Virus record (IMG/VR): IMGVR_UViG_3300011430_000011 | Span: 1 to 63,600 of that record | Length of the DNA stretch: 63,600 nucleotides | From: a virus | Taxonomy: Duplodnaviria; Caudoviricetes | Strand: one strand, 5' to 3' | Shown: one piece after another, positions 1,526 through 42,375 of the stretch | Numbering within the stretch: position 1 is the stretch's first letter | How the letters are laid out: each line of letters opens with the position of its first letter | The notes under the pieces: model-generated | Database searches by the model: none | Told to the model about the DNA's origin: nothing | The model's input: only the letters and a program-made list of their open reading frames with translations | Position numbers and translations under genes: made by a program

Positions 1526-1852
1526 ATGTACGAACTGACAGTTAAGATCAACAACGACCAACGAACATTTCATCGAAGGAGGATCTCGGCGATCTTGAAG
1601 GCACTGCTAGACCTAATAGAGCAGTACCCGAACCAGATCGAACTCGTGAGCTATAGTCCAGCTGTCGGTGCAGTAGTAACAAACCCAGCAGCAGGTTACG
1701 AGCACGACACCGAACGCATAACCGTGTCTGTGCTCGACCCGGACGACGGTCATGAGGTTTGGTCGGAAGAGATCGACGCGAGCCAGGTCAACGCTTTCAA
1801 AGCGGACGTCAAGCGGAACCCGAAGAAGGGTCTCGTTGTCACCATCAAGTAA
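1526..1852 (+). CDS. Hypothetical protein
   Basis: AAGGAGGAG RBS before ATG 1526. Confidence 0.75.
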   Translation: MYELTVKINNDQRTFHRRRISAILKALLDLIEQYPNQIELVSYSPAVGAVVTNPAAGYEHDTERITVSVLDPDDGHEVWSEEIDASQVNAFKADVKRNPKKGLVVTIK

Positions 1853-1857
1853 CGACA

Positions 1858-2054
1858 ACGACTGTCTGTTGCGGACACCTTACCGTAACGAGCATCCGGC
1901 CTATTCGCAAGCAAGGCTCAGGATCAGCTGCGCTACCACAAACTTCCCGAGCGGTGTGCCCGACTCACACCGTGCTCAACACAAAGAAGGAGCGGACGGA
2001 TGTGGCGGGAATGAGGTACCCCGGAACAGCGTGAACTCGTCAGCAGACAGTCGT
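1858..2054 (+). ncRNA. Candidate structured RNA, 197 nt
   Basis: 1858-1871 ACGACTGTCTGTTG pairs with 2041-2054 CAGCAGACAGTCGT (one G-U); internal hairpins; intergenic. Confidence 0.5.
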
Positions 2055-2205
2055 GGCGGCCGGTATCTCGGGCTCTGTCGGTCGTCAAACTCTTTCAAGC
2101 GTAACACCTTACATAACTTCGAACAACTTCGGGTCCGAAAAGTAGTAGGATCCGTGGGGCGTACAAGGTACGTCGTCTACAAACAAAGAGAAAGGGAGCA
2201 ATCAC

Positions 2206-2784
2206 ATGGCACGCACCCGTCCCAGCGCTACGAAGCCTCAAGCTTCGAAGCCTACCACGGACAACGGCAAGGCCGACGCCGATGCAACGAAGAAGGCGAA
2301 GGCCGACACCGAGGCCAAGCGTCAGCAGCGCGAGAACCAGGAAGCCAGCCACACGCAAGCTCTGCTCAAGCGTGTCGGCAAGCACCCGGCGCTCGGTACC
2401 GAGAACAAGGGAGAGAGTCTCTCTGCAGTAGCCTCAGACCTTTCCATCACCGCAGGCAAGGCGGCATTCCTGCTCATGATCCAGGCGGTCAAGGACGGAG
2501 ACGTTCCGGCCATCACCGGCAAGGATGACGAGACCCTGCTGAAGAACATCAACACAGCGCGTCTCAAGGTCGACCGCTTCAGCTCTTGGGGATGGCTCGC
2601 GGCGAGGGCCAGCAAGAGCGAGGGCTTCATCAAGGTCGGACTCGAGAAGCTCGGACTCTTCACACCGAAGGCCGAGAACATCGCGTCAAAGAGAGCCGAG
2701 CTCAACCCGCCGAAGCCGAAGGCAACCAAGACGGCCAAGCCGGGAACCAAGCGCACCCGGCCGAAGGCGAAGGGAAACGCCTAA
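2206..2784 (+). CDS. Lys/Ala-rich basic protein, possibly DNA-binding
   Basis: AAGGGAG RBS; basic low-complexity termini; strongly C/G-ending codons. Confidence 0.8.
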   Translation: MARTRPSATKPQASKPTTDNGKADADATKKAKADTEAKRQQRENQEASHTQALLKRVGKHPALGTENKGESLSAVASDLSITAGKAAFLLMIQAVKDGDVPAITGKDDETLLKNINTARLKVDRFSSWGWLAARASKSEGFIKVGLEKLGLFTPKAENIASKRAELNPPKPKATKTAKPGTKRTRPKAKGNA

Positions 2785-3059
2785 CTCTCGAGGACCTCGG
2801 CGACTTAACCAGGCTGAAAGAGATACTCAAGCCTGGTCGACGTATCTGGGTCTATCACGACCGCTTCGACCCGATCGAGTTGAGAATCGTCGGTACACCA
2901 ACTGTCGTCCCTGCCGGTCCTAAGACTATCAAGGTCTTGGACAAGTGGGGACGGCGGACGGTGGACAAAGTTGTCGGGTATGCAGCACAGCCCTATGTCA
3001 AGGTCTACACAGATCACGGCATGAGGTTTCTCGAGATTAAAGACTTCACAGTAGGGTGA
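2772..3059 (+). CDS. Predicted -1 frameshift extension of the 2206 gene (~92 extra aa)
   Basis: G_GGA_AAC at 2772-2778 just before TAA; -1 frame open to 3059 with no own RBS/start near its 5' end. Confidence 0.6.
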   Translation, partial: GKRLTLEDLGDLTRLKEILKPGRRIWVYHDRFDPIELRIVGTPTVVPAGPKTIKVLDKWGRRTVDKVVGYAAQPYVKVYTDHGMRFLEIKDFTVG

Positions 3060-3122
3060 CACGACAACAGTCGCCTAACACTGCGAAGAGAGCAGCGGCT
3101 CTTCAGTCTGGGTCTGGAGGGC

Positions 3123-3193
3123 TCGCTGCCTGAAGGGTCTGGCTCCGTCTACTACGTGGCGTGGGCGACAGGGCTGGACCCTTCAGGGAGCGA
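3123..3193 (+). promoter_or_regulatory. Long hairpin (RNA processing/regulatory candidate)
   Basis: CCTGAAGGGTC 3129-3139 / GACCCTTCAGG 3177-3187 plus TCGCT/AGCGA. Confidence 0.55.
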
Positions 3194-3215
3194 CTAGCTG
3201 AAAGGAGGGAGCTAT

Positions 3216-3368
3216 ATGCAGAAAGACTGGTTCGCCTGGTTCTTCTCAGCCAGATACCCAAATCAAAGCTGCTTGACAGCAGTATCAGGTGAGATGATCG
3301 GTCTCGAACCAGTAACGGACGTCTTGGCGCACGCGCTTGGTGTGTGTCTGCCAAAACCAACCCCGTGA
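3216..3368 (+). CDS. Small hypothetical protein, 50 aa (not in ORF track)
   Basis: AAAGGAGGGAG RBS; MQKDWFAWFF... Confidence 0.55.
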   Translation: MQKDWFAWFFSARYPNQSCLTAVSGEMIGLEPVTDVLAHALGVCLPKPTP

Positions 3369-3378
3369 GTTCACACCA

Positions 3379-3459
3379 GATGCGGCGCAGGGCTAGCCAG
3401 CAAGCCCGGAGAGGCGACAGAGCCGTGCAAGGGTAGCCAGGCTACCCTGACGCCGCATC
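3379..3459 (+). promoter_or_regulatory. Long hairpin followed by tandem CTACAAA and RBS
   Basis: GATGCGGCG/CGCCGCATC plus CAGGG(C)TAGCC/GGCTACCCTG. Confidence 0.55.
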
Positions 3460-3494
3460 CAAACCGCTACAAACCGCTACAAACAAAGGAGTGA

Positions 3495-3686
3495 TTGTCT
3501 ATGCACACTTCGATCACCACCGAAAGAATCATCGAAGCTGTGAATGAAGACGACAGTCTCGGCTTCTGCACTGCGTGTGGTGAGGAAGCGTACAATGTCG
3601 AGCCAGATGCAAGGAAGTACGAGTGTGAGAGTTGCGGAGCAGAAAAGGTCTACGGAGCAGAGGAACTGCTCCTGATGTTGGTCTGA
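3495..3686 (+). CDS. Small Zn-ribbon protein
   Basis: CTAC...VEPDA...CESC, typical small phage protein. Confidence 0.8.
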   Translation: MSMHTSITTERIIEAVNEDDSLGFCTACGEEAYNVEPDARKYECESCGAEKVYGAEELLLMLV

Positions 3687-41626: not shown

Positions 41627-41839
41627 CTATTTCTTCACAGCTCCCCAGATTGCATTGGCTATTTGACGAGCTCGATTCTGATCCAGTCTCTGGGACAACG
41701 ATGAGACACGAACGGCGACTGCTTGCATAGCCAGCCGCCGGTCGGAATCTGTGGTTGTTAGGAACTCAATCGGATCCATCCCGGCTAGAGCTACCTGAGC
41801 AGCCACTTCAATCTCATCGCGTCCCTCTAGGATTCCCCC
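41627..41839 (-). CDS. Tail assembly chaperone -1 frameshift extension (gpGT-like)
   Basis: G_GGG_GAA at 41839-41833; -1 frame open to TAG 41627, abutting the tape measure ATG. Confidence 0.8.
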   Translation of the reverse strand, partial: GGILEGRDEIEVAAQVALAGMDPIEFLTTTDSDRRLAMQAVAVRVSSLSQRLDQNRARQIANAIWGAVKK

Positions 41840-42375
41840 AGGAGATCCTCATCGGCTTCTCGGCTCGTATTCATGAACCATCGCTGCAATCTCATCGCAT
41901 GTCCTGCGATGGCTGCGTCGTTGTCGCCGAATAGTCCGAACACAACCTTGCGAGCTGAGTCGGCCGAGAAGCCGAGAAACTCAGCAAGAGCTGGTTCGTA
42001 CTTCAGAGGGAATCCCTGACGGTTTGGATCGAATGGGACATATGCCCCTTCACGCTCGAGATAGAGTCCCTCGCACGCCTCTATGAAAGTATCGACAGCA
42101 GTAAACATACCTCTGTCGACCTTATTCTTGACTTGACGCCTGACCTTCTCAGCGATGCGATCCATCTCTTTACTGTCGAGCAGCTTGTACTGGCAAACGA
42201 GACCTAGATCCTCATAGCCAGTGATCGAGATGTAAGCCGATCTGTTTTCGAACAGCTCCTTACGACGCTGACGGAGCTGCTCGAGCAGGTTCTGGTCTAT
42301 GACCTCGTCCTGCTCGAGCGCCACCGATGGCTCTTCGAGCAAGGCATCTCTTGTTTCTTCATCAATCTCTTGCAT
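41827..42375 (-). CDS. Tail assembly chaperone (gpG-like)
   Basis: Between tube and tape measure; slippery site at 3' end. Confidence 0.85.
   Translation of the reverse strand: MQEIDEETRDALLEEPSVALEQDEVIDQNLLEQLRQRRKELFENRSAYISITGYEDLGLVCQYKLLDSKEMDRIAEKVRRQVKNKVDRGMFTAVDTFIEACEGLYLEREGAYVPFDPNRQGFPLKYEPALAEFLGFSADSARKVVFGLFGDNDAAIAGHAMRLQRWFMNTSREADEDLLGES

Follow-up and report, generated by a model that had tools for sequence, protein, structure and literature searches.

A probable programmed -1 frameshift at a conserved G_GGA_AAC heptamer in an early phage gene encoding a helix-turn-helix-like protein

Programmed -1 ribosomal frameshifting (PRF) in phages is known above all from tail chaperone genes. 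In the G/GT pair of lambda and its counterparts in other phages, a slippery heptamer of the form X_XXY_YYZ is located towards the 3′ end of a gene, with the 0-frame stop codon close by, and an open reading frame (ORF) in the -1 frame, which lacks a start codon of its own, adds a C-terminal domain. We know of no strong stimulator that is obligatory for lambda G/GT. Annotated phage frameshifts lie nearly all in tail chaperone or virion genes; in the SEA-PHAGES set, tail chaperones make up 2397 of 2476 joined genes (PMC10885494). Tail-chaperone slippage is annotated at GGGAAAC in Microbacterium phage Trackstar (PMC13460127), in Caulobacter phage Colossus (PMC3556154) and in HCTV-1, a haloarchaeal virus (PMC5009743). 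In the 10A/10B proteins of T7 and T3 and in the capsid protein of Lactobacillus phage A2, a -1 slip at the extreme 3′ end of the ORF yields a longer isoform as the minor product (cited in PMC5009743). Escherichia coli dnaX (tau/gamma) and orfAB of the IS3 family are DNA-transaction systems whose isoforms share an N-terminal DNA-related part; as described in PMC4066793, they use A_AAA_AAG together with an upstream Shine-Dalgarno sequence and a downstream hairpin or pseudoknot. Here, we describe a gene at 2.2-3.1 kb of an uncultured tailed phage, IMG/VR record IMGVR_UViG_3300011430_000011, the complete 63.6-kb record (63,600 nucleotides, nt) being the stretch that was analysed and is called the window below. 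The gene encodes a basic, helix-turn-helix (HTH)-like protein and ends in G_GGA_AAC, and on the sequence evidence its message very probably yields two proteins, one of 192 amino acids and a rarer one of 284.

How does this locus compare with the described systems? Like the G/GT chaperones, including those of Trackstar and Colossus with the identical heptamer, it has an X_XXY_YYZ sequence near the 3′ end of the gene, a 0-frame stop codon close by and a startless -1 ORF for a C-terminal domain. Unlike them, it is surrounded by small early ORFs of the + strand and does not lie between tail tube and tape measure genes, and its product has no relation to the chaperones in sequence or fold. It would share with 10A/10B and the A2 capsid protein a minor longer isoform made by a slip in the last codons of the ORF, whereas those are virion proteins and both products here look like nucleic-acid-binding or protein-binding regulators. 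The resemblance to dnaX and orfAB lies in the kind of protein concerned; however, the heptamer here ends in AAC, stimulators such as theirs were not found, and the dnaX shift shortens the protein while this one would lengthen it. We found no published description of this frameshift in the literature, and the gene family is absent from 50,697 phage records, in which blastn and tblastn detected no cultured-phage relative. The case thus appears to be undescribed; its mechanism would be a known one, but the gene family and the setting, that of an early, DNA-binding-like phage protein, are new.

The gene ends with the codons AAG (2770), GGA (2773), AAC (2776), GCC (2779) and TAA, which places the heptamer in the phase required for tandem slippage (Table 1). 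A preliminary description made from the sequence alone had pointed to this canonical heptamer and to a -1 frame open to 3059 with neither a ribosome binding site nor a start codon near its beginning, and all of these held on re-examination. Read from 2772, the -1 frame gives GKRLTLEDLGDL...KDFTVG, 95 codons before the TGA at 3057-3059, and the earliest ATG, GTG or TTG past the heptamer is a TTG at 2880 (codon 36) with no Shine-Dalgarno sequence. Tandem slippage would join 191 residues of the gene product to 93 of the extension, which agrees with the isoform sizes of 192 and about 284 amino acids given earlier. The 192-amino-acid protein had been called basic, and it is: its isoelectric point is 10.2, with 38 lysine or arginine residues.

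An outline of the proposed process is as follows: most ribosomes would decode GGA AAC GCC and terminate at TAA to give the 192-amino-acid protein. In a minority, tRNA-Gly on GGA in the P-site and tRNA-Asn on AAC in the A-site would slip by -1 onto GGG and AAA, after which the ribosome would read CGC CTA and so on for 93 further codons to complete the 284-amino-acid isoform. At the junction of the long isoform, KGN would be followed by RLTLED, and the predicted junction peptide is ...KGN-RLTLEDLGDLTR. The long isoform would thereby acquire a C-terminal helix and a beta-barrel resembling SH3, Tudor and Sm domains, and the slip site would set a fixed ratio between a plain DNA-binding form and one that also carries an interaction domain, much as in lambda G/GT or T7 10A/10B. 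We put at roughly 80% the probability that this is a conserved programmed -1 frameshift at which ribosomes really shift; that slippage occurs, how efficient it is and what the two domains do, we infer.

Table 1. Coordinates of the features at the frameshift locus, in window positions
Feature	Position	Strand	Remarks
0-frame gene	2206..2784	+	ATG at 2206, 192 amino acids (ORF and translation)
Slippery heptamer G_GGA_AAC	2772..2778	+	X_XXY_YYZ phase; proposed tandem -1 slip site
0-frame stop TAA	2782..2784	+	One codon past the heptamer
-1 frame extension	2778..3059	+	93 codons after the proposed slip, and TGA; predicted small beta-barrel behind a short helix (translation, AlphaFold2)
8-bp stem ACCAGGCT/AGCCTGGT	2808-2815 / 2830-2837	+	Present; begins 29 nt past the heptamer
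Very stable hairpin	2895..2965	+	Inside the extension ORF, over codons TVVPAGPKTIKVLDKWGRRT

The case for the frameshift is carried by the relatives of the gene. Scans of viral contigs with the single protein found none, and a profile scan of 185,579 species genomes gave no match, so that no prophage copy was seen. A large protein collection, searched over 105-336 amino acids, yielded 30 homologues of 172-255 amino acids that are 42-64% identical. The gene family comes from uncultured phages of soil, sediment and groundwater. Although the lysine-, alanine- and proline-rich C-terminal tails of the homologues are otherwise unalignable, 29 of 30 end in GNA (22) or GNAS (7), and G190, N191 and A192 are each at least 90% conserved. 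DNA was obtained for 14 related loci (L003-L016; one viral contig and 13 metagenome contigs), of which one, L014, ends ahead of the end of the gene. GGGAAAC is present in phase in 12 of the remaining 13. Together with the window, these reduce to nine distinct sequences (window=L006, L003=L012, L004=L005, L007, L008=L010, L009, L013, L011 and L015). The 0-frame stop codon follows the heptamer at a distance of 3 nt in most of them and of 6 nt in L007, L008 and L010, that is, within one or two codons in all.

The conservation extends to positions that the protein does not require. The base preceding GGA is G in all nine distinct sequences, though the residue encoded there varies among K, R and S, and the glycine codon of the slip site is GGA in all nine, whereas elsewhere in these genes GGA accounts for 24 of 190 glycine codons (12.6%). 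In a seven-sequence DNA alignment GGGAAACGC is invariant while its flanks vary. The heptamer and its phase are thus kept in diverged homologues, synonymous positions included, and indeed in every close-family locus that was fetched. Comparison shows four things to be conserved, namely the heptamer, the phase in which it lies, a 0-frame stop codon close to it and the -1 ORF. One more distant relative, L016 (759-1424), encodes a 124-amino-acid homologue with no basic tails, no GNA end and no heptamer. It has no extension either: a GC hairpin is followed by a separate gene of 69-80 amino acids with AAGGAG ahead of its ATG, which is unrelated to the extension by hhalign (probability 0.9%). Thus the motif and the extension either occur together or are both absent.

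Past the heptamer, the -1 ORF runs for 84-100 codons in all seven complete loci and is open until the contig end in two truncated ones. The extension frame contains no stop codon in any of the seven, and each of the other five frames contains one to eight. The encoded proteins are 27-60% identical, and their alignment begins at the heptamer itself, with GKR[LV]..[DE]..L..L.PGR. The spacing from the heptamer to PGR varies between 17 and 24 codons, always by whole codons, and arginine codons in this interval interchange between CGC and AGG. The earliest canonical start codon lies at codon 13 to 36, depending on the locus, and no start codon or Shine-Dalgarno sequence for the extension is conserved across the loci examined. 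The ratio of nonsynonymous to synonymous substitution rates (dN/dS) is 0.20-0.59 over the whole extension and 0.11-0.51 over the first 20 or so codons past the heptamer (six of eight pairs computable). On this comparative evidence, selection acts on the extension as a protein, beginning at the heptamer.

Several points weigh against the frameshift. Neither RNAalifold nor shuffle folding found a conserved stimulatory structure 5-9 nt downstream of the heptamer, and no conserved Shine-Dalgarno-like stimulator was seen when the upstream flanks were inspected by eye. In E. coli, heptamers ending in A_AAC are reported to shift poorly, bacterial ribosomes being less tolerant of a slip from AAC to AAA than eukaryotic ones (PMC4066793). 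The related loci are phylogenetically non-independent. The dN/dS values are rough, dS being saturated (>1), and they are biased downward by a codon alignment that was protein-guided. The -1 frame is also open for 39-245 codons upstream of the heptamer; long open alternative frames are typical here, and therefore an open frame by itself is weaker evidence. Finally, in five members of one clade a start at M or L has been called about 17-18 residues into the extension, directly ahead of the PGR motif (MGLLRPGR, LAVLVPGR, MAALRLGR, MAALRPGR and MALRVGR), and independent initiation of the extension may occur in some lineages.

Could the extension then be a separate small gene of about 60-80 amino acids whose start codon is internal or non-canonical, while some other constraint, such as a C-terminal peptide motif, keeps the GNA end and the heptamer? 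Besides the five called starts and the lack of a PRF stimulator, L003 has an ATG at codon 21 with GGGTAGG before it, and gene callers do call ORFs here: 14 pieces of the extension, 51-86 amino acids long, are on record, that of the window (P0036) having 59, and a full HMMER scan of 1.84 billion representatives returned three matches to the extension, all of at most 86 amino acids. However, the called pieces start at several different alignment columns, and the starts vary between loci, lack a Shine-Dalgarno sequence and are not conserved across the loci, which does not suggest a separate gene with a conserved start of its own. In the window, a product initiated at the TTG of codon 36 would lack the helix of the modelled domain as well as its first two strands. 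The 13-36 codons ahead of the starts are conserved as protein, with codon-like substitutions and whole-codon insertions and deletions, and they stay in one and the same phase with respect to the heptamer throughout the nine distinct sequences. A peptide motif would fix neither the rare GGA nor the G that precedes it across K, R and S codons. We regard a separate gene as unlikely. Still less room is left for termination followed by reinitiation, in which the ribosome would restart in the -1 frame near the stop codon with no Shine-Dalgarno sequence and two separate, coupled proteins would result. The 0-frame stop codon one or two codons past the heptamer in all loci would suit such coupling, as would the fact that the next ORF starts there with no Shine-Dalgarno sequence; however, none of the listed loci has an ATG, GTG or TTG within 13 codons of the stop codon, the nearest in the window is 32 codons downstream of it, and the synonymous-site conservation of the heptamer would be left unexplained. 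We consider it very unlikely.

The same two products would also arise if RNA polymerase slipped at GGGAAA, since an mRNA shorter by one base or longer by two would encode the fusion. Known sites of transcriptional slippage use long homopolymer runs (PMC5009743), whereas the runs here comprise only three G and three A and the conserved unit is a phased heptamer, not a homopolymer, so that slippage of this kind is highly improbable. As for chance, the pattern within this single genome is rare but not decisive, and may be fortuitous: GGGAAAC is not enriched in the window (5 occurrences against 5.06 expected), and 5 of 107 ORFs (at least 100 amino acids, six frames) contain an in-phase heptamer within their last 20 codons. 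Two of these have a -1 extension of at least 80 codons, namely the gene at 2206..2784 and a spurious ORF that lies antisense to the gene for the terminase. It is therefore for the relatives to decide, and the comparative data, with the same arrangement in nine distinct sequences from many assemblies, indicate that the pattern exceeds chance. Grouped with chance were a sequencing or assembly indel that splits an in-frame gene of 284 amino acids and a decaying pseudogene. Contigs of four other runs (four studies) covering 2580-2965 show no differences and no gaps, which answers the concern about an indel error raised with the preliminary description. That homologues might be in-frame fusions had also been considered; none of the 30 is one, although the search covered the expected 284 amino acids, and a search for longer proteins with the extension profile likewise found no fusion, which is weak evidence, as it missed P0031 as well. 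P0031 (255 amino acids, on a contig of 1219 nt) is the only long homologue and was counted as a point for a split gene. Its reading departs from the 0 frame past WGWLAAR, some 55 codons before the heptamer and inside the second HTH module, and continues in the -1 frame, which is open well upstream there too, into the extension. It was therefore rejected as a repaired, in-frame fusion and is a frame-switched read, the switch probably being an indel in its contig. An explanation by chance, indel or pseudogene is close to refuted.

We thus return to a ribosomal -1 frameshift and ask how it might be stimulated. The preliminary description had named a stem at about 2808-2837 and a CGAGG/CCTCG dyad. 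The stem exists, but it does not qualify as a stimulator: its spacing is wrong, it is not conserved, and it is not exceptional, the 67-nt region 2779-2845 having a z-score of -1.22 with 22 of 200 shuffled sequences folding equally well or better. The dyad fares no better (region 2785-2806, z-score +0.18), being neither exceptional nor conserved. RNAalifold gave -2.24 kcal/mol and no consensus structure downstream of the heptamer, and both proposed stems were rejected as frameshift stimulators on the shuffle z-scores and the missing consensus fold. The shift efficiency is probably low, because a canonical stimulator is missing and the change from AAC to AAA is poorly tolerated in bacteria. With no stimulator at the canonical spacing, a low, constitutive shift and a minority long isoform would be expected, as for lambda G/GT. 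A special decoding tRNA is not indicated, as no tRNA gene was found in the window (1-63600).

Strong hairpins do occur farther downstream, beginning 28-38 nt or about 117 nt past the heptamer. The one in the window has a folding free energy of -44.5 kcal/mol and a z-score of -7.17, and none of 200 shuffled sequences folds as well. The same codons fold in L004 (3612-3692, -45.1 kcal/mol) and L008 (3273-3353, -41.4 kcal/mol), both as 81-nt segments, with paired changes from G-C to A-U at pair 10-61 and from CC/GG to CU/AG at 21-22/49-50. The hairpin contains conserved G.U pairs, which points to RNA of the sense strand. In the other clade (FYSD-clade), hairpins at L003 3392-3460, L009 2228-2290, L011 1194-1260 and L015 3484-3550 have z-scores of -3.4 to -6.7; they begin 28-38 nt past the heptamer over the codons L-R-P-G-R, with a further hairpin in L003, about 130 nt downstream. 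Their arms and pairing registers differ, as read from folds set against the codons with no formal covariation test. What could such hairpins do? Protection of sparsely translated mRNA, a binding site and distant action on frameshifting are all possible. Ribosome queuing is described as a route for action at a distance (PMC6815119). A shifted ribosome might be held at the base of the hairpin 28-38 nt downstream (L003, L009, L011 and L015), with the next one queued about one footprint behind it with GGA in the P-site and AAC in the A-site, so that frameshifting would be stimulated by collision and be self-reinforcing. Alternatively, the barrel of the long isoform might bind the hairpin and autoregulate the isoform ratio. 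That the hairpins belong to the recoding device in either manner is unlikely in our view; if true, a phage gene would, on either reading, have a -1 PRF stimulator acting from a distance. The conserved hairpins also raise the question of the stability or regulation of sparsely translated recoded regions.

What would the two isoforms look like? An AlphaFold2 model of the 192-amino-acid protein from 30 sequences, with a mean predicted local distance difference test (pLDDT) score of 84.6, shows a long helix on the N-terminal side, followed by two HTH-like modules (spanning roughly residues 40-99 and 105-165, with the HTH-like helices at 72-78/83-97 and 128-135/139-148) and disordered basic tails rich in lysine, alanine and proline at both ends. 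By VIA-align, the first module resembles StbA (Z 5.9), DeoR (5.8) and Tn3 resolvase (5.6), a similarity at the generic HTH level. Residues 100-150 align with KorB (Z 4.8, root mean square deviation 1.6 over 41 residues, 22% identity) and with ParB and Spo0J (both Z 4.6). These scores are within the generic HTH range (HTH matches span Z 4.3-5.9), so that the second module may or may not be of the ParB/KorB type, and the window protein lacks the ParB N-terminal domain. Foldseek found nothing better than E 0.49 for this model, with no BFVD match at E ≤0.001. Pfam HTH_58 matches four of the 30 family members (best E 0.007), and the window protein itself has no Pfam or PHROG match. The protein is probably DNA-binding, judging from the model. 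The term nucleoid-like in the preliminary description goes beyond it, since the model offers two HTH-like modules with basic tails and no more.

P0030 (193 amino acids, on a 778-nt contig) is an unusual family member in which a ParB-like N-terminal domain (PHROG E 2e-13 to 3e-39) replaces the first half and is joined to the second HTH module of the family and a GNAS tail; it is the product of either domain shuffling or a chimeric assembly.

The extension, modelled by AlphaFold2 from 21 sequences (pLDDT 87.3), consists of a short helix and a small beta-barrel of SH3/Tudor/Sm-like shape, in keeping with the beta-rich domain predicted earlier for the long isoform. The helix (residues 6-18 of the extension, pLDDT 82-88) lies upstream of any start codon. 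Foldseek matches are weak (PAZ E 0.034, Tudor E 0.047, Sm-like E 0.056), and in VIA-align many barrel families are tied, TraI (Z 5.9) being the best, followed by Pelota (5.6) and SAWADEE (5.4). Proteins with a WYL domain and UvrD/PcrA offer a parallel, as the long isoform would place an SH3/Sm-like barrel after an HTH region: the extension aligns with CapW (Z 4.5), PafBC (4.4 and 4.0), BrxR (4.0) and the Tudor domain of UvrD/PcrA (4.4-4.5), all with Z below 6 and tied with unrelated barrels, and, unlike here, the barrel of those proteins is encoded in frame. No Pfam match to the extension was found below E 0.18. Neither part could be assigned through Pfam, PHROGs, PDB sequence profiles or the ESM Atlas, and no named family fits either of them. 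An architecture of a DNA-binding core with an interaction barrel is what we infer from the models.

If the frameshift is real, regulatory phage proteins, too, can come as isoforms in a fixed ratio, and in this family a canonical heptamer appears to provide some of the molecules with a small barrel domain. The locus would offer a conserved test case for slippage at G_GGA_AAC with no canonical stimulator, probably on high-GC Gram-positive ribosomes. The annotation also changes: P0036, the small ORF delivered by the gene caller, would be a fragment of the extension.

The phage has small early ORFs on its + strand and structural genes on its - strand, and its terminase is 36-40% identical to terminases of Streptomyces and Arthrobacter phages. 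The gene and its extension are flanked by 1853-2205 (about 350 nt) and 3060-3494 (about 435 nt), which have no convincing genes, and may form their own transcription unit. A scan of 1700-3600 for promoters and terminators returned nothing on the + strand, and no sigma-70-like promoter. About 65 nt past the stop codon of the extension, at 3123-3193, lies a long imperfect inverted repeat (73% match to its own reverse complement), which may be a terminator-like structure that closes the transcription unit; the only Rfam hit was a sub-threshold, chance-level match to a miRNA at the same place.

The phage also has a tail-chaperone-like pair of its own, at 41627..42375 on the - strand, in which a gene for 182 amino acids ends in CTG GGG GAA TCC TAG. 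The -1 frame of this gene continues for about 66 codons, and the TAG that closes this frame abuts the ATG (41626) of a tape-measure-like ORF of 682 amino acids. This pair is likely a second frameshift in the same genome, on a G-run that forms an imperfect X_XXY_YYZ heptamer.

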